DNA of 32,000 bases, taken from NCBI GenBank assembly GCA_963706795.1, contig OY970170.1:660001-692000 (forward strand), read 5' to 3'. Both the position numbers and the translations under genes were made by a program. Shown in pieces: positions 1,158 through 14,193 of this stretch (position 1 is its first letter; each line of letters begins with the position of its first letter). Origin of the DNA: Candidatus Saccharimonadota bacterium (GTDB lineage: Bacteria; Patescibacteriota; Gracilibacteria; BD1-5; UBA2023). Under the pieces are notes generated by a model, which ran no database searches, had not been told where the DNA came from, and worked only from the letters and a program-made list of their open reading frames with translations.

Positions 1158-2705
1158 TTAGGAATTGATTTGAAATACACTCATACTCTTGGTAAGTCCT
1201 TGAGCTTGTGAGGTAAGTGATGCGGTTGCAGCGGCTGCTTCTTCGACCAGAGCTGCGTTTTGTTGCGTGACAGTATCCATCTGACCAATCGCTTCGCTGA
1301 TACCAGTGATATCATTGCTTTGTCTGGCAGATGCTGTGCTAATAGACTCCACGATGGCAGTAACACTGGCGATCGCTTTTACGATATCCTGCATACTCTC
1401 ACCGGCTTCGTCCACTAATTTGCTGCCCTGATCAACAGTTCTCATCGACGAGCCAATGAGTTTTTTAATCTCAGCGGCAGCGGCAGCTGATCGTTGAGCA
1501 AGGGTTCGAACTTCGGTCGCGACGACAGCAAAACCACGACCTTGTTCTCCGGCACGTGCAGCTTCTACGGCTGCATTGAGGGCTAGAATATTTGTTTGAA
1601 AGGCGATGCTATCGATAGTGCTGGTAATATCGCCAATCTTTTTGGAGCTTTCTTTGATTAATCCCATAGTTTCAATTACGGAATCAACCACCCTTCCCCC
1701 TTCAACAGCCATATTGGATGCCTGGATGGCGAGCGTGTTTGCTTGCTCGGCATTTTCGGCATTCTTTTTGACGCTGCTCGTGAGAGTTTCCATAGACGCA
1801 GCTGTTTCTTGGAGAGACGAAGCTTGCTCTTCGGTGCGGCTTGAGAGATCAAGATTTCCGTTGGCAATTTCGCTTGCTCCGATAGCAACTGTATTTACAG
1901 ACTGTCGCACTTCTCCCACGGTGTGTGCGAGATTTTCAGACATGTGAGCCACGGCTTCCATAAGTTTGCCGATTTCGTCACGGGTTGTGGCAGTTATTTT
2001 GCCAGTGAGATCATTGTTTGCAACTCGCTCTACGGCTTCCACTGCCAGATTCAGCGGTAAGGTAATACTCTTGCTCATACGAAGTGCGAAAAACATGCCT
2101 ATTCCCAAAGTAAAGACCATACTAACAAGCAGGAGATAACCCAAGAATTCGATACGATTTTTTGCTTCGAGCTCATGCTGGGCATTTGCTGCTTCTATGA
2201 GTGGAATAACCTCTTCAATTGCTTTGCTGTGCGTGCTGTAGGCAGTAGAAGCATTTTTAACCGCAAGCAGCGTGGTGTCGCCATCCATATTTTCGACTGC
2301 TGGAATGAGCTCACTTTTAACAATCTTATAAAACAAAACGGCAGGCTCATGAGCTTTTTTAAGCAAAAGATCCATGATTTTTGGATCTTTTTCGGTTTTT
2401 GTCAAAAAACTGTGGAAATCAAGATAAGATTTTTCGAGTGATTTGAGTTCATTAATGAGCTTTACTTGTTCGTTTTTGTCAGATGTATTTGCAAGCTCAC
2501 GCATTTTTAGCGCTGACCCCATGATATTACCTCTGGGTGCAAGCAATTCGGCAATTTGATCCTTCCCATTTACGATTTTGTTGTAGATGGGCCCATTGAT
2601 ATTGATCTCTTTGAGCATGTTGAATTCACCCCAAGCATACAGGGAAAATGCGACTGCAAAAATACTGATCAGACATATGAGCTTATGAGATATTTTCTTA
2701 AACAT
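1158..2705 (-). CDS. Methyl-accepting chemotaxis protein (helical sensor domain, 2 TM, HAMP, MCP signalling domain)
   Basis: The canonical MCP hairpin core is present: [31 protein letters not shown] and [45 protein letters not shown]-like segment follows the second TM. AAGGAG lies upstream of the ATG at 2703..2705 (an alternative upstream ATG is at 2757..2759). Stop is TAA; there is no internal TGA. Confidence 0.9.
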
Positions 2706-2847
2706 ATTCCTTCTCCTTGGTGTGTGTTTGTATGTTAAGTTGTCAGAGTGGTGAGACATATTTTTTTGTGTCTTCCAGCAGCGCAGTTATTTATAACTAA
2801 ATTCACTAGGGAAGTCAAAGACAAAGCTTTTTACTATGGCTCCATTT

Positions 2848-2876
2848 TTGCCAATTTTTGCGCGAAGTGATACGAT
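2848..2876 (+). promoter_or_regulatory. Sigma70-like promoter for pilT
   Basis: TTGCCA (2848..2853), a 17-nt spacer, then TACGAT (2871..2876). The ATG is 11 nt further on, and no SD is present. Confidence 0.45.
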
Positions 2877-2887
2877 AAAGAAAAACT

Positions 2888-3952
2888 ATGGCTCTCGACC
2901 GATTTCATGCACTTCTTGATGATGTGCTTACGACGAAGATTCCTGATCTGCATCTAACGACAGGGATGTGTCCATATATTCGTGGGCATGATGGTATGAT
3001 GCGCGCTGTGCCAACTTTTGGTGTTATGGAACTCGAAGAAATGAAGGCAATCGCTTCATTTGTCCTTCCTGCTGATCGTCGCGGAACCTGGCCGGACGAA
3101 AAAGAAATGGATGCTTCGTTTGAATACAAAAATGCCAGATTTCGTGTAAATGCCTATTTTGAAACCCGTGGTCCATCGTTCGCATTTCGTCTTGTAGCTC
3201 ACGAAGTGCCTTCGGTACAGGAACTTGGACTCTCACAGGCAACGATTGATCTCATGCACCGAGAGCATGGACTCGTGCTTGTTACAGGGCCTACTGGATC
3301 AGGAAAGTCGACGACACTTGCGTCAATGCTCGACTATATCAATACCAATTTTGAGAAGCATATTATTACGATCGAAGACCCCATAGAATACGTCTTCACT
3401 CCTAAAAAATCCCTCATTCACCAACGAGAAATCTCGGTCCATACTCACTCATTTGCGCGAGCCATCAAATCCTCACTCCGCGAGGATCCTGATGTCATTA
3501 TGGTAGGTGAAATGCGCGATCCAGAAACCATGGCCGCAGCCATTACACTCGCCGAAACGGGTCATTTAGTTCTCGCGACACTTCATACTAATGACACTGT
3601 GCAGTCGATTGATCGTATTATTGATTCTTTTCCTTCAGGGCAGCAGCCACAGATCCGAGTTCAGCTTGCGATGTCGCTCGCTGGAGTGGTGAGTCAGGTG
3701 CTTCTTCCACGTAAAGTCGGTAAGGGTCGCGTCGCGGCTCGAGAAGTGCTTCTCTGAAATGATGCGGTGAGATCGCTCATTATCCACGGTGCGACTCATC
3801 AGATATATTCGATGATCGAACTTGGTGCCCAAGAATGAATGGTCCTCATGGATCGTGCACTCGAGACGCTCTATATCAAAGGCGCGATCAGCAAAGAAGT
3901 CTTTAAAAGTCGAGTACGAGATCAAGATCTCCTCGCACTCCACCTAAATTAG
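2888..3952 (+). CDS. pilT: Type IV pilus retraction ATPase PilT
   Basis: Walker A is GPTGSGKSTT, followed by IITIEDPIEY, REDPDVIMVGEMRD and ATLHTN. In-frame TGAs lie at 3755..3757 and 3836..3838. The frame continues as NDAVRSLIIHGATHQIYSMIELGAQE(G)MVLMDRAL, the conserved PilT C-terminus, ending at TAG 3950..3952. Confidence 0.92.
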
Positions 3953-3956
3953 TCAT

Positions 3957-4904
3957 ATGAGTAACGAAAAGCGCGAAAAAAAGGAGTCGCCAATTAATGA
4001 GCTTAAGGCCTCACTCGACTCTATACGTAGCAATCTCAAGATTGCGCCGGTTATGGCGTTCCTCGACAAGTTCGACACTTTTATCGCCAAAAAGAAAAAA
4101 ATCCTCGCAAAAGACGAAGTCCTCTTTGAACCTGGAGAAAACCCATATTTTTATATTGTCGCGTCTGGTGCAATTGGCATTTTTCGCATCAATCCTACCG
4201 GTGAAAAAAAGGAAGTTGGTAAGGTCTATACCGGATCGTTCCTCTGAGAAGGAGTCATCTCCAACCGTAATCAAAAGGATGTTCAGGCGCTTTCGGCTTC
4301 TGAACGCACGACCGTTATCGCACTCACAAAAGCTGACCTCGAATACCTCGAGTCCATGGACCCTGAGACGCTTGTAGCTCTCTATAAACACATCAATAAT
4401 ATCACGAGTCTTCGTCTTGCTGAGACTGGCCGTGAGCTTGCTGTGCTCTATGAACTCACCGAAAAAATCCAAGAATTTCGTGATCTTGGACAGCGTGGAA
4501 TGCTCGATGCGATCAATCATCTCGCGAGCGTACTCTCGATTAGTGCGATCCTCGTCATCGAAAAACACCCAATCGTCCCAAATCTCTTCATTTATAAATA
4601 TAACTCGAGGTTTCCGACGGTCTGGCCCATGAATCAAAAAGTTGAATCCGAGATTAAGCTCGCCGAAGGAAGCTACGAAGGCCCAGAGATCATGGGTACG
4701 AAAAAGGAGGATTCGATATTTATCTTGCCACTCTTGTCCGGAGAAAAAACAGTCGGATATATCGTGACTTCCAGAGCTCAAAATACTCCACTCGGAGATG
4801 GTGATATGCGTGTACTCAAGCATACTGGACCACTTCTTGCCTCGATGCTTGAACACCACCAAAAACTCGCCGATGATAAAGCTCGCGCTCTCCGAAATGT
4901 TTAG
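3957..4904 (+). CDS. Cyclic-nucleotide-binding domain + GAF domain protein, no recognisable output domain
   Basis: ORFs 3957..4247 and 4356..4904 share a frame and are joined through the TGA at 4245..4247. This creates the cNMP-binding signature YTGSFL(G)EGVI. The C-terminal half looks GAF-like (SIFILPLLSGEKTVGYIVTSRAQNTPLGDGDMRVLKHTGPLLASMLEHH). The gene starts 4 nt after the pilT stop. Confidence 0.75.
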
Positions 4905-4943: not shown

Positions 4944-7409
4944 TTGATCAAAGAAATGCTCGAATCTACGCTCCTCGAAGTTCGTGTCGATCGCCTCAAT
5001 GAAAAGGGGGTTTTTGTCGCGGAGCAGATTTTGAACATTCTTCATAACACGGTGGATGAGCAGCGTCATGGGATTTTTCATAAGCATCAGGCACATTTTG
5101 TGCCCTACAGTTTTGAAATAGCGAATATCGCGGGAGTGATCAGATTTTTCTTTCGAGCACCGACGACCCATGTAAATATCCTGCAAAATCAGATCTACGC
5201 ACATTTTCCAAATGTCGAGCTCAATATTGTACCAGAATACCTTCCGAGTCGTGCTCCATACATCTCTGAGCTCGGACTTGCAAAGGACTATATTCGTCCA
5301 ATCAAGATATATACAGAGTTCAAGGATCGAAGCGAAAAGGAAACCGTTGATCCGCTTTCTTCGCTCTCGAGCGCTCTGTCGAAGGCGCACAAAGACGAGC
5401 CAGTAGTTTTTCAGGTCAATTTTTCGCCGATCCTCGATACCGAATGGAAGGATGAGCATGTTATAGAAATCCTCGCTTCTAAGCGTCCGAAGTGGATCAA
5501 AAGGATCCTGCTTTCGCCCTATGGTTTTGCTCTACAGCTCCTCTTTATGCCATTTTTGGCACTGGGTCGTCTGACAATGCTCGTGGTCCGCGGATCCGCT
5601 TCATCTGATCATGGTGATGAGCACCACGGTCACGAAAAAGAAGACACCAAAAAACTCGAACTCGAAGAAAAACTCAAAGGATTTGGCTATGCGGTCGATA
5701 TGCGCATCGCTTCGTATGCCGAAAACGCAGTCACTGCAAAATCTTCGCTCAAAGAAGTCGCCACCGCCCTCAATATCTTTGCTCGTCCAGGTGGCAATAA
5801 TCTCCGTGCATCTGCTCCAGTAGCTGATGCCAATCAGACTTTTGCAGCACGACTTAATCGTCGCAATATGCTCCTCAATACTGCGGAGCTCGCAGGTATT
5901 GTTCATATGCCGACGATCTATGTCAAAACACCAGGAATCAACTGGGTAATTACCAAAAAGTTTGAGCCGCCACATAACATCCCGACGATTGATCTGCATG
6001 ATGACGCAACTCCAATCGGAATGACTAATTTCCGTGGAAGCGAGGTGCCATTTGGAATTCTGCCAAATGATCGTCGTAGGCATGTGTATGTTATTGGTAA
6101 GACGGGTATGGGTAAGTCGACCCTTCTCGAAAATATGATCTTTGATGACATCCAAAAGGGTCGTGGTGTTGGATTAGTTGATCCGCATGGAGACCTTGCG
6201 GAGACGATCCTCGCATGTATTCCAAAGAGTCGAACGAATGATGTTATCGTGTTTGATCCATCAGACTACAAGCATCCGATTGCATTTAATATGCTCGAGC
6301 AGGTAAAGCCTGAACTTCGTCCGATTGTTGCATCAGGATTGGTGTCGATTTTTAAGAAAATCTTTGGTGATAGTTGGGGGCCACGACTTGAGCACATCAT
6401 GCGAAATACGGTGATGACCCTGCTGGAAATGCCGGATACGACGATCATGTCGATCCCACTCATGCTCACCATGAAGTCGTACCGACTCAAGATTGTTGCC
6501 AAGATTAAGGATCCAAATCTTGCCCGCTTTTGGACGAGTGAATACGAAGTCCTCGAACCACGTCAAATGACCGAAGCGGCTGCGCCCATCCTCAATAAGG
6601 TTGGACAATTCCTCTCGAGTCCGCTGATGCGCAATATTCTTGGGCAGCCAAAAAATCCGTTCTCACTCCGCTGGGCTATGGACAATGGCAAGATTATTAT
6701 TGTGAAGCTTCCAAAGGGAACGATTGGTGAAGACTCTTCGGCTCTGCTTGGTGCGATGATGGTTACAAAATTCCAGATCGATGCGATGAGTCGAGCGGAT
6801 ATTCCAGAATCTGAGCGTCGGGATTTTTATCTCTATGTCGACGAATTCCAAAATTTTGCGACCGATTCCTTTGCGACGATCCTCTCTGAAGCTCGCAAAT
6901 ATAAGCTCAATCTCGTCATGGCTAATCAGTATATTGAGCAGATGACTGAGACAGTTCAGGGTGCAGTTTTTGGAAATGTCGGAACGCTCGTGTCATTTCA
7001 GGTAGGTTTCCATGATGCAACCAAACTCTCTGAGGTGATGGATGAGGAAGTGGTTCTGCCGAATGACCTTATGAATCTTCGAAAATACGATATCTATACG
7101 AAGCTTCTCATTGATGGAATGCCTTCGCCAGTATTCTCTGCAACGACCCTTGCTCCGATCAGAGCACGCCTCGAAATCCCAGAACAAAAGGCGGATGTTG
7201 TACTCAAGGTTTCCCGTGAAAAATACTCAAAACCGGTCGATCTCGTAGAGCGTAAAATCCTCGAATTTAATATGAAGGTCGTCGAGGACGAGAAAAAATT
7301 CCAAAAAGCAGCCGAGGAATACAAAGAAAAGAAAAAGGAAGAGAAAAAAGCCAAAGCTGATGCTGATAAGGTAAAGCTGAGTAATGTGACTCCGAATGAA
7401 AAACAATAG
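4944..7409 (+). CDS. VirD4/TraD-like (FtsK/HerA-superfamily) P-loop ATPase with K/E-rich tail
   Basis: The ORF is 821 aa. Walker A is VIGKTGMGKSTLL and Walker B is FYLYVDEFQNFAT. A membrane-like segment (ILLSPYGFALQLLFMPFLALG) is present. The start is either TTG 4944 or ATG 4956. There is no internal TGA. Confidence 0.8.
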   Translation: MIKEMLESTLLEVRVDRLNEKGVFVAEQILNILHNTVDEQRHGIFHKHQAHFVPYSFEIANIAGVIRFFFRAPTTHVNILQNQIYAHFPNVELNIVPEYLPSRAPYISELGLAKDYIRPIKIYTEFKDRSEKETVDPLSSLSSALSKAHKDEPVVFQVNFSPILDTEWKDEHVIEILASKRPKWIKRILLSPYGFALQLLFMPFLALGRLTMLVVRGSASSDHGDEHHGHEKEDTKKLELEEKLKGFGYAVDMRIASYAENAVTAKSSLKEVATALNIFARPGGNNLRASAPVADANQTFAARLNRRNMLLNTAELAGIVHMPTIYVKTPGINWVITKKFEPPHNIPTIDLHDDATPIGMTNFRGSEVPFGILPNDRRRHVYVIGKTGMGKSTLLENMIFDDIQKGRGVGLVDPHGDLAETILACIPKSRTNDVIVFDPSDYKHPIAFNMLEQVKPELRPIVASGLVSIFKKIFGDSWGPRLEHIMRNTVMTLLEMPDTTIMSIPLMLTMKSYRLKIVAKIKDPNLARFWTSEYEVLEPRQMTEAAAPILNKVGQFLSSPLMRNILGQPKNPFSLRWAMDNGKIIIVKLPKGTIGEDSSALLGAMMVTKFQIDAMSRADIPESERRDFYLYVDEFQNFATDSFATILSEARKYKLNLVMANQYIEQMTETVQGAVFGNVGTLVSFQVGFHDATKLSEVMDEEVVLPNDLMNLRKYDIYTKLLIDGMPSPVFSATTLAPIRARLEIPEQKADVVLKVSREKYSKPVDLVERKILEFNMKVVEDEKKFQKAAEEYKEKKKEEKKAKADADKVKLSNVTPNEKQ

Positions 7410-11619: not shown

Positions 11620-12819
11620 TTATTCAGCAGCTGCTTCTGGAGCTGGAGCTTCAGTTGCTTCTTCTTTCTTTGCCTTTGGAGCCTTCTTTGCTTTTGGTGC
11701 AGCTTCTGCATCAGCAGACTCTGCGGCTGGAGTTTCTGCTCCGGCTTCGAGAGCCTTCATAGAGAGACCAATACGCTTTGCCTGTGCATCGAAAGTAATA
11801 ATCTTTGCCTTTACACTCTCACCAACCTTGATGAATTCTTCGATATTCTTCGAAGCTTCAGTTGAGATTTCAGAGAGGTGGATGAGACCAGAGATTCCAC
11901 CATCGAGGGCGAGGAATACTCCAAACTGAGAAATACGCATTACTGGAGCATCAACGATGTCACCAACCTTGTATTTTGCAGCGAGTTCAGCCCATGGGTT
12001 TGCGCGGAGGCGCTTCATAGAGAGGCTGATCTTGTCTCCTTCGATTCCGATAATCTGAACCTTAACATTGTCTCCAACCTTCGCGAACTTTGAAGGATTA
12101 GATACGTGTCCCCAGTCGATTTCAGAAACGTGAACGAGTCCTTCGATACCGTTGAAAGTAATGAAGAGTCCGTATGTGAGGATTCCTGATACAGAACCTT
12201 CGACGATGTCTCCCGCCTTGAGGTGAGAGAGAGCTGCTGCGCGCTGCTCTTCGAGGGCTGCCTTTTCAGAGAAGATGATCTTCTTTCCATCGTTGTCGAC
12301 GTTGATAACGCGAACCTTGAATGGTTTTCCAACGAGACGCTGAAGGTGCTCGAGAATCTTTTCTGGATCTGCTCCTTCAACACGTGGGTAGTTGACTGGA
12401 GTGAGCTGAGAAACTGGGATGAATCCCTTGATTCCGTCGAGGTCAATGAGGAGACCTCCCTTGTTTGCTTCGTTCGGGATAACCGTGATGATTTCCTTTG
12501 TGTCGAAGTTTGAGTGGAGCTTCTCGATGAGCTTGATCTGTGAAGCCTTGCGGAGTGAGAGGTGAACGATACCAGAGTGTCGGTCTTCACCGATAACAAT
12601 AGAATCAACCTTATCACCACTTGCGAGTCCAGATGCATCCTCAGTAGAAGAATACATGTGAGTTCCGGCAATTACTCCTGTGAACTGTCCTCCGATGTCC
12701 ACGAGGATCATCTTAGGAGATGCAGAAATAACCGTACCAGAAATAATTTCTCCCATTGCAGGAGTAAGAATTGGTGCAGCTGAAGCAATCAGTGCGTCAA
12801 AATCAGACTGTACAGACAT
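11620..12819 (-). CDS. rpsA: 30S ribosomal protein S1 (four S1 domains, A/E/K/P-rich tail)
   Basis: The 399-aa ORF has repeated S1-domain signatures (G.IV.G.V....G.F...GI.G..H.SE). No TGA; stop is TAA. Confidence 0.9.
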   Translation of the reverse strand: MSVQSDFDALIASAAPILTPAMGEIISGTVISASPKMILVDIGGQFTGVIAGTHMYSSTEDASGLASGDKVDSIVIGEDRHSGIVHLSLRKASQIKLIEKLHSNFDTKEIITVIPNEANKGGLLIDLDGIKGFIPVSQLTPVNYPRVEGADPEKILEHLQRLVGKPFKVRVINVDNDGKKIIFSEKAALEEQRAAALSHLKAGDIVEGSVSGILTYGLFITFNGIEGLVHVSEIDWGHVSNPSKFAKVGDNVKVQIIGIEGDKISLSMKRLRANPWAELAAKYKVGDIVDAPVMRISQFGVFLALDGGISGLIHLSEISTEASKNIEEFIKVGESVKAKIITFDAQAKRIGLSMKALEAGAETPAAESADAEAAPKAKKAPKAKKEEATEAPAPEAAAE

Positions 12820-12827
12820 GATTTTAA

Positions 12828-12855
12828 AAATTACGAAATAAACGTTGGATGTAAA
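12828..12855 (-). promoter_or_regulatory. Candidate rpsA promoter giving a leaderless mRNA
   Basis: On the minus strand: TTTACA (12850..12855), 16 nt, TAATTT (12828..12833). The rpsA ATG follows 8 nt later and there is no SD. Confidence 0.4.
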
Positions 12856-12942
12856 AATCTTCGCTTTCGCGAGTTAGTACTGTATTTGGGATTCTTCGTT
12901 TCAGGATAGTCTTGCTCCTTCGCTCTGACGAGCTTCGGAGGG

Positions 12943-12979
12943 CAAGCCCCGTCGTGGGGTTTGAGTGAACTTAAACTTA
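12943..12979 (-). repeat. Copy A of a ~38-nt direct repeat
   Basis: Minus-strand reading is TAAGTTTAAGTTCACTCAAACCCCACGACGGGGCTTG. Compare with copy B at 13068..13105. Confidence 0.8.
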
Positions 12980-13067
12980 TGAAGTGGTGAGGCTTGCCCT
13001 ACGGGCGCCCTCGGCCGAAAGCCAAATCGTTGGCTTTCTAAAACGCATTCGCGTTTTACCTCACGTT

Positions 13068-13105
13068 CAAGTCTCGTCATGGAGGTTTGTGTGAACTTAA
13101 ACTTA
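13068..13105 (-). repeat. Copy B of the direct repeat, abutting the tRNA-His 3' end
   Basis: Minus-strand reading is TAAGTTTAAGTTCACACAAACCTCCATGACGAGACTTG. The first 22 nt differ from copy A at one position. Confidence 0.8.
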
Positions 13106-13183
13106 TGGGGCGATCGACGAGGCTTGAACTCGCAACATCCAGATTCACAGTCTGGCGCTCTAACCAATTGAACTACGACCGCC
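13106..13183 (-). tRNA. tRNA-His (GTG) with encoded G-1 and CCA
   Basis: The cloverleaf was folded by hand. The acceptor is GCGGTCG/CGATCGC, with G-1 opposite C73. The D-arm is GTTCAATTGGTTAGAGC and the anticodon arm is CCAGA-CTGTGAA-TCTGG. The T-arm is GCGAG-TTCAAGC-CTCGT, and the 3' CCA is encoded. Confidence 0.92.
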
Positions 13184-13198
13184 ACAAAAAGCAGGAAA

Positions 13199-13226
13199 AG
13201 TATATGAAAGTGCTATTTTTTTGCAA
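13199..13226 (-). promoter_or_regulatory. Candidate promoter for tRNA-His
   Basis: On the minus strand: TTGCAA (13221..13226), 16 nt, TATACT (13199..13204), about 15 nt upstream of G-1. Confidence 0.45.
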
Positions 13227-13233
13227 AAGAAAA

Positions 13234-13274
13234 TCTCCCGACTTTTGCTTGCCCACAAGCAGGAATTCGGGAGA
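13234..13274 (-). terminator. Terminator hairpin
   Basis: TCTCCCGA (13234..13241) pairs with TCGGGAGA (13267..13274), with an inner TGCTTG/CAAGCA stem. On the minus strand it is followed by TTTTCTTTTG. Confidence 0.6.
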
Positions 13275-13315
13275 TGGGAATGTTGTAGGGAAATGATGTT
13301 GAGTGATAATGCACC

Positions 13316-13549
13316 CTACAACCTGTATGCTTTAGCAGAGAGGCGCACCAATTCCATTGGAGAATATCCTAGAACTTCCAGGTTTTTAACTTCCTGTTCC
13401 CCAGCTTGCCCTACGGTAGGTATAGACTCTAAAAAGTGTGGCTCATACTTCTCCAATTGTCTTAAAAAAGTCACGTCGTATTCTGTTAATATGAGACGAT
13501 TTACTAACCAGATCACAATTATCTTTGTTCTGGCATCGTTTCGTCACTT
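13316..13549 (-). pseudogene. 5'-truncated paralogue of the gene at 13648..14193
   Basis: The fragment reads K(G)RNDARTKIIVIWLVNRLILTEYDVTFLRQLEKYEPHFLESIPTV...LGYSPMELVRLSAKAYRL. It aligns with RGSQDAKILL...LVDRTVLRKYDPTFSTYLDKSEPELLTDIPKI...LGYSTKDISRLSSKIYR. An in-frame TAG lies at 13550..13552 and there is no ATG; only a GTG at 13514..13516. Confidence 0.5.
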
Positions 13550-13597
13550 CTACTGAATACCCAAACATGGATTATGCTTAGATGGAGATACTGTAGC

Positions 13598-13647: not shown

Positions 13648-14193
13648 TTACCTGTAAATTTTGCTTGAAAGGCGCGATATGTCTTTAGTTGAATAACCAA
13701 GAAATTTCAATTCTTCCAGTTCATTTTTCACGATATCCTCAATTTTTGGAATGTCGGTAAGCAACTCTGGTTCAGATTTGTCTAAGTATGTAGAGAATGT
13801 TGGATCATATTTTCGTAAGACGGTTCTATCAACTAGTCCTGACCAAATAAAATTTCCCCATTGTTCTCGTAAAAGTATTTTTGCATCTTGACTGCCGCGA
13901 TCTACCCATTTTGTGATGCGATTTTCTTTCATCAATTGATCCATTTCTTCGCGAAGCGCCTCAATATCAGTGTTTGCTCGATCGAGCGCCATCTTAGTGA
14001 GACGGTACATATACGCTTTGCGCTCTTTGGGTGGAATACTCCTGAGTTTTGACTCTAAAATTCACAAAATTTGGTCATCTAAAACTTCCTGTAAGTTACT
14101 TTGTACAGTCCTTTGAAGTCAAATAGATTCTGCTTGCTTGAGGTTATCAGTTTGACCAAGCAGCGGTGCGGCTTTTGGGGAATGTGGTGTCAT
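13648..14193 (-). CDS. Hypothetical protein with C-terminal HTH-like segment
   Basis: ORF 13648..14010 extends in frame through TGAs at 14062 and 14119 to the ATG at 14191..14193. An in-frame TAA lies upstream at 14227. The C-terminus ELKFLGYSTKDISRLSSKIYR resembles a sigma region-4/LuxR-type helix-turn-helix. The start position is uncertain. Confidence 0.5.

Follow-up and report, generated by a model that had tools for sequence, protein, structure and literature searches.

What lies between the tRNA-His gene and rpsA in the 32,000-nt stretch of contig OY970170.1 analyzed here (the window), which comes from a genome placed within Gracilibacteria? The original prediction, made from the letters of the window, had described a structured, RNA-like segment directly after tRNA-His that carries a duplicated 38-nt motif, and had suggested a decayed tRNA, a processed small RNA (sRNA) linked to the tRNA, or a leader controlling rpsA. 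Both the segment and the two copies of the motif are present on the minus strand, at 13068..13105 and 12943..12979. Homologous segments occur in related genomes, and we favor, with a probability of about 0.55, the reading that they form a new, undescribed family of tRNA-anchored, structured non-coding insertion modules of ~100-150 nt, located in the 3' trailers of tRNA genes of Gracilibacteria and co-transcribed with the tRNA.

Predicted anatomy of the segment

All coordinates refer to the window, in which the module, tRNA-His, and rpsA share the minus strand; the order on that strand is promoter-like site, tRNA-His, insert, mini-terminator, and rpsA. Judged from its sequence, a module appears to consist of a variable AT-rich linker, a 9- to 16-nt segment antisense to the T-loop and the 3' strand of the T-stem, a core of 60-100 nt, and a duplicate of the tRNA 3' end that runs from the T-loop to the CCA. 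The segment in the window would then be two tandem copies of this module, the first complete and the second short and degraded:

13068..13105 (-), linker T1, copy 1 of the 38-nt motif, TAAGTTTAAGTTCACACAAACCTCCATGACGAGACTTG, directly after the CCA of tRNA-His; its 3' end is IR1
13065..13078 (-), IR1, GACGAGACTTGAAC, antisense to the tRNA's own T-loop and T-stem 3' strand, GTTCAAGCCTCGTC (13/14 match)
12997..13067 (-), core of module 1: junction AACGTGA, helix P2 (GGT/GCC), hairpin hp1 (13057..13040), hairpin hp2 (13038..13017), and small hairpin hp3 (13009..12997)
12980..12996 (-), X', decayed duplicate of the tRNA-His 3' end, CAAGCCTCACCACTTCA, which aligns with exact duplicates of relatives
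12943..12979 (-), linker T2, copy 2 of the motif in a 37-nt version, which holds IR2
12940..12953 (-), IR2, GACGGGGCTTGCCC, which pairs with AGGGCAAGCCTC upstream, at the end of module 1
12915..12941 (-), short core of module 2, hairpin CCTCCGAAG-CTC-GTCA-GAG-CGAAGGAG, from the fold
12903..12914 (-), X'', a possible further decayed T-loop/T-stem fragment, CAAGACTATCCT; tentative, from its position and CAAG start only

The motif copies are 126 nt apart; the window contains two matches to their first 22 nt, where 0.00 would be expected. The 88 nt between them fold at -39.3 kcal/mol (z = -4.5), and the entire 256-nt stretch folds with z = -4.1. As had been proposed, the fold of the 88 nt holds two perfect hairpins and the helix GTGAGGT/GCCTCAC; in our fold, the hairpins measure 7 bp (AAAACGC/GCGTTTT) and 9 bp (GAAAGCCAA/TTGGCTTTC). 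The helix GTGAGGT/GCCTCAC had been taken for the closing helix. It can fold in the window, but it uses the conserved junction and a P2 strand together with the decayed fragment and is possible in the window and in locus L001 only. According to the comparative data, the conserved closing helix is instead GAGACTTG/CAAGCCTC (13075..13068 with 12996..12989), which joins the end of motif copy 1 to the decayed copy of the T-loop and T-stem of the tRNA. In this helix, P1, IR1 provides the 5' strand and the first 8 nt of X' the 3' strand. Besides the tRNA itself, IR1 is the sole match with at most one mismatch in the 32 kb scanned. The core of module 1 scores 94-104 bits with our covariance models.

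X' lines up with the exact 20- to 21-nt duplicates (..AAGTCCCATCATTCGCCCCA) of L005, L055, and L040 and is identical to L001 at 15/15 positions. Its decay consists mostly of transitions, and only its first 8 nt, CAAGCCTC, still match the resident tRNA and pair with IR1. What had been read as a CCA-like CACCA is thus part of a decayed duplicate of the tRNA-His 3' end; at its position, the relatives have ...CATCATTCGCCCCA. In the second module, IR2 has changed AAC to CCC, which matches the GGG just before X'. The hairpin motif of this module, with a covarying inner stem, is the same as hp1 of L196 (TCTCCGAAGGCCGAATGGCGAAGGAGA) and is also found in L026; in L001, T2 and this hairpin have been lost by deletion. 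L200 shows the same tandem layout as the window (fragment, linker, core, fragment, linker).

The tandem layout also accounts for the chain of mutually exclusive helices that had been described as switch logic. Both the 9-bp helix GGGCAAGCC/GGCTTGCCC, in which IR2 pairs with the end of module 1, and the hairpin containing AAGGAG exist, but the chain arises because 3'-end copies and antisense copies alternate in a tandem array, and the AAGGAG hairpin is a recurrent structural motif (L196, L026) rather than a trap for a Shine-Dalgarno sequence. Similarly, the suggestion of a decayed tRNA holds insofar as a decayed copy of a tRNA 3' end is present; the core is an insert in a T-loop context and not a degenerate cloverleaf. 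In agreement with the lack of tRNA features noted in the inter-copy stretch, ARAGORN finds only tRNA-His in the window, and a second tRNA is likewise missing from the cmscan results for 12700..13350 at E <= 10. Nor does Rfam give a second tRNA match in eight relatives at E <= 0.1.

Homologous modules in related genomes

We used the rpsA product of the window, for which an exact-protein search found no record, to retrieve 69 loci, designated by L numbers, nearly all of them from metagenome-assembled genomes of Gracilibacteria, Peribacteria, or other Patescibacteria. tRNA-His lies directly 5' of rpsA in about 50 of them, with a spacer of 16-286 nt that mostly measures 16-70 nt. Since most spacers are short, the structured segment is an insertion, present in a minority of lineages. 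Homologous modules occur in ~9 lineages behind tRNA-His and in 2 behind tRNA-Leu(GAG). Those at the same site as in the window include L001/L215 (rpsA 94% identical to that of the window), L196-199 (90%), L200 (85%), L045 (84%, truncated by the end of the contig), L005/L055/L040 (77-79%), and L026 (70%, a divergent form). The covariance models match the window, L001/L215, L005, L055, L040, L196-199, L200, and L021 with 63-123 bits and L026, L031, and L045 more weakly; in 643 kb of unrelated DNA, they gave one match only, of 17 bits.

Close relatives without the module are L201, L202, L203, L206, and L010. Empty sites can be assigned to L201, L202, L203, L206, and L004 for tRNA-His and to L037 for the tRNA-Leu site of L031. 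Among the more distant rpsA relatives (P0005, P0006, P0007, P0010, P0013, and P0017), we found empty sites or other spacer types only.

The insert closes with an exact 20- to 21-nt duplicate of the genome's own tRNA-His 3' end in L005, L055, L040, L026, L196, and L200. The duplicate starts inside the T-loop and runs through the CCA, after which a short native leader resumes. The two tRNA-Leu(GAG) cases have a 21-nt duplicate (L021) and a 23-nt duplicate with a perfect 16-nt antisense segment (L031), so that exact duplicates of 20-23 nt are found in eight genomes. We scanned 91 tRNAs from Gracilibacteria loci and 24 from unrelated contigs systematically, and such duplicates appeared in Gracilibacteria only. 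The displaced fragments of the eight genomes, which represent seven different sequences, are identical to the resident tRNA at 166/166 nt, while the 30 nt that follow the two CCA ends are mostly 43-67% alike. The spacing between the repeats is 126-191 bp in all ~12 instances, and none of them contains a gene.

The antisense segment, just 5' of the core, corresponds in reverse complement to the T-loop of the tRNA and the 3' strand of its T-stem (ATGGGACTTGAAC against GTTCAAGTCCCAT in L005; GTTTTGAAC against GTTCAAAAC in L196). In the relatives, it forms perfect runs of 9-16 nt and tracks the local T-arm in L005, L040, L031, L196, and L001. In every case, its complementarity to the upstream tRNA equals or exceeds that to the downstream fragment.

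The modules behind the two tRNAs are related to one another. The core of L021, which is linked to tRNA-Leu, scores 63.5 bits with model R2 and shows clear homology to the core that L040 carries behind tRNA-His, with GCCGTCTCTGGC and GAAGAACAAGTCCCAT in common. In these genomes, the T-arm GTGGGTTCAAGTCCCATC is common to tRNA-His and tRNA-Leu(GAG). The L040 module is a mosaic with a right half like that of the L021 copy, though the rpsA of L040 is 96-98% identical to those of L005 and L055, which points to an exchange between paralogous copies. The terminator in the linker of L031 differs from the native one at the empty site of L037.

Searches outside these loci did not reveal a described equivalent. 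With Rfam 15 at gathering and permissive thresholds, the window and 20+8 loci yielded tRNAs only and no known riboswitch, ribozyme, or sRNA family; the matches below threshold were chance ones to UptR (20.9 bits; gathering threshold, 100), Plastid-ycf2 (19.3; 65.7), and SNORD123 (17.6; 45). Scans of viral contigs with four patterns gave nothing or chance matches only, and BLASTN against phages and plasmids gave no match. A metagenome scan with the 15-nt core GAACGTGAGGYAAAA, a pattern that is too short, returned at least 120 matches, all of them chance, and no real element was among the matches listed. Literature searches for an equivalent of the module found none. An RNase P-like GGAAAGUCC in L005 turned out to be hp3 plus the T-loop. 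Besides the Rfam searches, comparison of the anatomy with known consensus features led us to reject signal recognition particle RNA, a group II intron fragment, and hammerhead, twister, and hepatitis delta virus ribozymes. On the same grounds of anatomy, we rejected a bulge-helix-bulge intron, a TIGR (tandem interspaced guide RNA) or CRISPR array, and an internal promoter with TTGAAC as its -10 element.

Conservation and covariation of the fold

The consensus structure and its covariation were evaluated on an alignment of eight sequences. In the consensus fold, the antisense segment pairs with the displaced T-arm copy to give the closing helix P1; the other elements are a conserved three-way junction, in which P2 carries hp1 and hp2, and a variable hp3. 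Overall, 90% of the alignment cells are paired, compared with 32-49% when the partners are slid by 1-3 columns. Double changes affect 9 of the 23 pairs, against 3.7 +/- 1.3 in column shuffles, none of which (0/500) reaches the observed value. While hp1 is variable, hp2 has a variable stem with a conserved loop and closing pairs (CAA-NNNN-TTG); it is 100% paired and includes four covarying pairs. The covariance model is specific, with 63-117 bits for members and a best match of 17 bits in the unrelated DNA. The helices are thus conserved and covary in related genomes, a check on which the proposal of a structured RNA had been made to depend.

The core also evolves more slowly than its surroundings. 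Between the window and L001, it is identical at 67/71 positions, and all four differences fall in hairpin loops; the corresponding values are 80% for synonymous third positions of rpsA, 76% for the linker, and 80% for the region 5' of the tRNA. Between L005 and L055, the core is 95% identical and synonymous positions are 70% identical. Covariation, conservation above the level of rpsA synonymous sites, and the identity of the displaced fragment to the resident tRNA indicate that the fold, and usually the fragment, is constrained. The fold is under purifying selection and thus more than a neutral scar. The core hairpins have remained conserved even in the lineage of the window, where the 3'-end duplicate has decayed.

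Origin, expression, and possible role

The anatomy of the modules suggests an origin by insertion or duplication anchored in the T-loop. Such an event would leave the layout of an intact tRNA gene (tDNA) plus a displaced 3' fragment, as integrative islands do. Transfer could then have occurred between tRNA-His and tRNA-Leu(GAG) with their common T-arm GTGGGTTCAAGTCCCATC, and exchange between the direct repeats could bring about precise loss or tandem duplication. The position and orientation of the module indicate that it is transcribed with the tRNA; transcription would start at the tRNA-His promoter and include the module in the tRNA precursor, 5' of the mini-terminator. The transcript would fold into a compact multi-helix domain closed by the antisense segment and the displaced T-arm copy, and the antisense segment might alternatively pair with the tRNA's own T-arm.

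Our best guess is that the module acts as a cis-acting or processed tRNA-trailer RNA, a mimic of and antisense to the tRNA 3' half that would be presented to the processing machinery or to the tRNA itself. The RNA could be a processed trailer RNA of this kind, or it could serve as a substrate or guide for its own propagation; the tRNA-linked processed sRNA of the original prediction is a live option. Selection and concerted evolution are both candidates for keeping the fragment identical to the tRNA. A more speculative idea, which we consider improbable, is that the module is an RNA-guided homing unit for tRNA genes that resembles a bridge RNA: the antisense segment would read the T-arm, the 3' copy and the core would recruit a recombinase or reverse transcriptase in trans, and insertion would regenerate the tRNA and duplicate its 3' end. 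A sibling idea is a structured spare 3' half that would pair with the 5' part of the tRNA, similar to archaeal split tRNAs. If a homing unit, the module would be a programmable tDNA-targeting element of ~150 nt in bacteria of the candidate phyla radiation (CPR).

Several observations weigh against co-transcribed insertion modules as we describe them. The covariation comes from ~5-6 independent lineages, and only +/-3-10 kb around rpsA was examined in each genome. We infer co-transcription and processing from position only. At both tRNA-Leu sites, moreover, the module is separated from the tRNA by a terminator-like hairpin, so that efficient co-transcription is doubtful at these sites. The strand that folds is weakly indicated (8 G.U against 4 A.C cells, several of them from one lineage), and the minimum free energy is equal on both strands and thus uninformative in this respect; given this weak strand evidence, the fold may have a role at the DNA level. 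In addition, the window and L001 hold the 3'-end duplicate in decayed form, so whatever needs an exact duplicate elsewhere is not needed there. Finally, no recombinase was found nearby, either among window open reading frames (ORFs) read by eye or among the precomputed Pfam families of called genes in the fetched loci.

If the family is real, Gracilibacteria, which are CPR bacteria with recoded UGA and tiny genomes, keep a structured RNA or DNA module built from pieces of tRNA. No curated RNA family resembles this combination of an antisense T-arm and a duplicated 3' end. The family would offer a system in which to study tRNA genes as landing pads, the upkeep of fragment identity, and functional RNAs in CPR tRNA trailers.

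Alternative explanations

The modules might instead be active non-autonomous mobile elements. Here, the folded strand, as DNA or RNA, would be the substrate or guide for recombination, a recombinase or reverse transcriptase encoded elsewhere would move the ~150-nt unit, the antisense segment would specify the T-arm target, and conservation of the fold would reflect selection for mobility rather than host function. Much of the distribution fits this explanation: modules lie behind two different tRNA genes, in each case with duplicates that match the local tRNA; the sites are precisely empty in relatives; the window and L200 hold tandem copies; the right half of the L040 mosaic resembles the L021 tRNA-Leu copy; the linker terminator of L031 is unlike the native one at the empty site of L037; and the antisense segment, which extends across the T-loop junction point, follows the sequence of the local tRNA. 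We nevertheless consider it unlikely. No recombinase, reverse transcriptase, or transposase lies near any copy, as far as window ORFs read by eye and precomputed Pfam lists can tell; the ends of the module have no terminal inverted repeats of their own; only two target tRNAs were seen among the 91 scanned; and no copies were found in viral contigs, phages, or plasmids. Moreover, a clade whose rpsA identities are 70-94% has kept the module at one locus, and the core has been kept in the window and L001 despite the decay of the direct repeat that exchange would need. An inert scar of an integrase-mediated island is also conceivable, in which entry at the T-loop of tRNA-His was followed by deletion of the interior, leaving a trailer that came with the element, a short piece of an attachment (att) arm, and the displaced tDNA fragment. 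Intact tDNA, an interval, and a same-orientation 3' fragment from the T-loop are the signature that Islander uses (PMC4383910), and the decay of the fragment in the window is what one expects of a non-functional copy. Yet the ~12 instances are all gene-free, with 126-191 bp between the repeats, and no large insertion was seen at the site in ~50 species. The helices covary, the core is conserved above synonymous sites, the fragment is 100% identical in eight genomes while the neighboring sequence diverges, and an antisense T-arm copy is no feature of attP arms. An island scar is accordingly quite improbable.

The remaining explanations derive from the position of the segment or from its individual parts. 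A decayed tandem duplicate of tRNA-His, i.e., a tRNA pseudogene whose 3' end has been kept similar by gene conversion, would explain why the segment closes with a tRNA-His 3' end, why the closing helix has a 5' strand similar to that of a T-stem (ATGGG in L005), and why the linker of the L005 clade holds TGTGAAT, the anticodon-loop sequence of tRNA-His. This account is largely refuted, and we give it a slim chance: ARAGORN and Rfam at E <= 10 detect no tRNA signal, the core sits inside the would-be T-loop and not at the place of the D or anticodon arm, at its 3' end, the linker of the L005 clade copies the rpsA leader with its ATG rather than a tRNA 5' part, and the same core is found behind tRNA-Leu. 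The rpsA leader of the original prediction, a riboswitch or attenuator with mutually exclusive helices, one of which sequesters AAGGAG, is very improbable. The segment does lie 5' of rpsA, alternative pairings exist in the window, and rpsA of Escherichia coli is autoregulated through a structured leader. However, the module is missing from most of the ~50 orthologous spacers, some of which measure only 16 nt, and modules are found behind tRNA-Leu(GAG) as well, followed there by a terminator. In the window, the conserved mini-terminator (the hairpin with its T-run) and a conserved AT-rich block lie between the module and the ATG. L001, in which rpsA is 94% identical, has lost the AAGGAG hairpin by deletion, and no Rfam family matches. 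These results largely refute regulation of rpsA by the segment. Lastly, the 68-codon frame from 13080, which is open and begins with ATG in the window, had been considered as a small Arg-rich protein whose conservation would speak against a structured RNA. Relatives do not keep this frame: in L001, ACG replaces the ATG; in L005, L196, and L200, the frame is broken by indels (of 1+1 nt and 13 nt) and replacements of whole hairpins; and the substitutions in stems are compensatory rather than synonymous. Nor is any other ORF of the module conserved in relatives. The protein reading is thus refuted, and the annotation can be cleared of a spurious small ORF and of a misleading clue to rpsA regulation.

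Comparison with known systems

Genomic islands and prophages placed in tRNA genes by tyrosine integrases are the closest parallel in layout. Their signature is an intact tDNA and a displaced tDNA fragment (PMC4383910; Williams 2002); Islander uses it and discards intervals of <2 kb (PMC4383910). Like such islands, the modules follow an intact tRNA gene and end in a same-orientation duplicate of its 3' end, from T-loop to CCA, whose 20-23 nt correspond to a known crossover sublocation; native downstream sequence resumes after the fragment, and tandem arrays occur. Displaced fragments as used by Islander are present in eight relatives; in the window, 8 nt match the resident tRNA and the rest is decayed. 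Unlike islands, the modules span 126-191 bp rather than at least 2 kb, contain no integrase or other gene, have a covarying multi-hairpin core and an antisense T-arm, and keep the fragment identical to the tRNA over long divergence. They thus carry the hallmark of a tDNA island at one-tenth of the size accepted by island finders, a limit that would make a class of miniature tDNA insertions invisible to current pipelines.

The modules also share features with miniature inverted-repeat transposable elements (MITEs) and with cis-mobilizable elements flanked by att sites. They are small, non-coding, patchily distributed, and strongly structured, with precise empty sites, and as in MITEs, an inverted pair (the antisense segment and the displaced T-arm, 9-16 bp) lies at their borders. 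This pair, however, consists of copies of the target and is not an element-specific terminal repeat. The duplication measures at least 20-23 nt, in contrast to target-site duplications of 2-10 bp, and only two target sites were seen. We know of no parent element for the module.

Among RNAs, 3'ETS-leuZ of E. coli offers a precedent, a short sRNA that derives from the 3' trailer of a tRNA and acts as an sRNA sponge by its sequence. The module lies in the corresponding place, between the tRNA and the terminator of the tRNA unit (promoter at 13226..13199, tRNA, module, and hairpin with T-run at 12873..12853), so that release by 3' processing of the tRNA would follow. In contrast to 3'ETS-leuZ, it is a multi-helix domain of ~100 nt that closes with a copy of the tRNA's own 3' end, and it is known here from sequence.

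Folded single-stranded attachment sites, such as attC of integrons and attP(+) of CTX-phi, resemble the module in that two inverted copies in one strand form a site-like duplex with a variable branched structure between them. The R''/R' boxes of attC (RYYYAAC/GTTRRRY, at the outer ends) do not occur in the right geometry; the module has GAAC/GTTC at the helix's inner end, and GTT is usually missing from the displaced copy. There is no integron integrase or Xer context among the precomputed Pfam families in the fetched loci or the window ORFs read by eye.

In Archaea, non-canonical introns occur in T-loops, and some tRNA genes are split. Like T-loop introns, the module is extra structured sequence at the T-loop position (56/57) that is complementary to an adjacent part of the tRNA. 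In contrast to these introns and to split tRNAs, an intact tRNA precedes the module, no splicing is required, and the junctions do not form a bulge-helix-bulge. Bacteria are not known to have the splicing endonuclease.

The tRNA-His unit and its neighborhood

The features around the segment are as follows:

13199..13226 (-), promoter-like site of the tRNA-His unit, TTGCAA-16-TATACT, from a consensus scan
13106..13183 (-), tRNA-His(GUG) with encoded G-1 and CCA (ARAGORN; Rfam RF00005, 63.5 bits; called as 13183..13106 or 13182..13106)
12853..12873 (-), small GNRA hairpin and T-run, likely terminator of the tRNA-His unit, from its conservation in relatives
12828..12855 (-), tentative promoter-like TTTACA-N16-TAATTT directly 5' of the nearly leaderless rpsA, read from the sequence
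11620..12819 (-), rpsA, ribosomal protein S1, 399 aa; context outside the module

An equivalent of the promoter-like site of tRNA-His, TTTTGC..CATATAAT, is kept 5' of tRNA-His in L196, L203, and L206. The GNRA hairpin with its T-run had been proposed to end the transcript, and its conservation agrees with this role: the element (CGCGGGAATCCGC followed by the T-run) is kept at the end of the tRNA-His unit in L001, L196, and L201, and L203 and L206 have analogous or variant mini-hairpins. A consensus terminator scan gave no call at 12873..12853, where the stem is too short, and the promoter scan gave none for the TTTACA-N16-TAATTT site at 12828..12855. The TTTATTTCGTAATTTTT block of the latter region is kept in relatives. 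Only 16 nt separate the CCA of tRNA-His from the ATG of rpsA in some species, which implies either co-transcription or a promoter that overlaps the 3' end of the tRNA. In the window (12819..12873) and orthologous spacers, rpsA appears nearly leaderless, with a conserved TTTATTTC(G/T)TAATTTTT block that extends up to the ATG.

The coding fraction of the window is 0.93 under genetic code 25 (UGA = Gly) and 0.71 under code 11. Code 25 fits the Gracilibacteria/Peribacteria origin of all close relatives, and ORF lists made with table 11 are fragmented.

Just 5' of the tRNA-His promoter, the ORF at 13316..13555 (-) is a truncated paralog of the 181-aa ORF at 13648..14193 (-). It covers the C-terminal ~77 aa, with the end ...LGYSPMELVRLSAKAYRL, and represents a partial tandem gene duplication beside the tRNA locus. 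An exact 13-mer, CCGTAGGGCAAGC, is shared by the hp3/fragment junction (12992..13004, -) and the interior of this paralog (13404..13416, -). About 0.01 such matches are expected, the flanks do not prolong the match, and L001 lacks the upstream copy; the 13-mer may be a recombination footprint or a chance match.

Farther away, the 821-aa ORF at 4944..7409 (+) is syntenic with genes in L208, L210, and L212 annotated as DUF8128, DUF87, and TraG/TrwB-like (resembling coupling ATPases of type IV secretion systems). It adjoins PilT-like and cyclic nucleotide monophosphate-binding genes, a conserved neighborhood with no relation to the module.

Other inserts at tRNA genes

Structured sequences of other kinds occupy the same or similar sites in several relatives. 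In L196, a GC-rich multi-hairpin stretch of ~140 nt (2823..2960; …GACGCAAATGCGAGCGCGTCCAGGCGGACACATTTG…GGCAGCGAGCAACGCTC…) lies between the displaced fragment and the mini-terminator and may be a second, different module. L030 (2734..3000) and L042 (1401..1572) have in common a GC-rich core of ~70 nt (GTACC..GAGT.GTA.CGG.AGCTAC..GAGGA) inside a long inverted repeat. The tRNA-His-rpsA spacers of L002, L003, L006, L208, L210, and L212 also carry conserved non-coding elements that differ from the module; the L003 group shares a hairpin, AAAGTTCTC.AAACCC...GGGAC.GATAACTTT, and several others hold long AT-rich palindromes. The tRNA-His-rpsA spacer thus looks like a hot spot for structured inserts.

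A mirror-image case at the 5' end of a tRNA occurs in L050 (~4400..4550). Here, the first 22 nt of tRNA-Leu(GAG) recur as a 22-nt duplicate, next to which comes a structured, GC-rich insert of ~113 nt that is rich in GAGAGC; both the duplicate and the insert lie 5' of the intact tRNA-Leu. In L053, ARAGORN reports a tRNA-SeC (tca) at 2622..2700, ~180 nt 5' of tRNA-His; in an organism that uses code 25, this gene more likely encodes a UGA-decoding tRNA-Gly(UCA).

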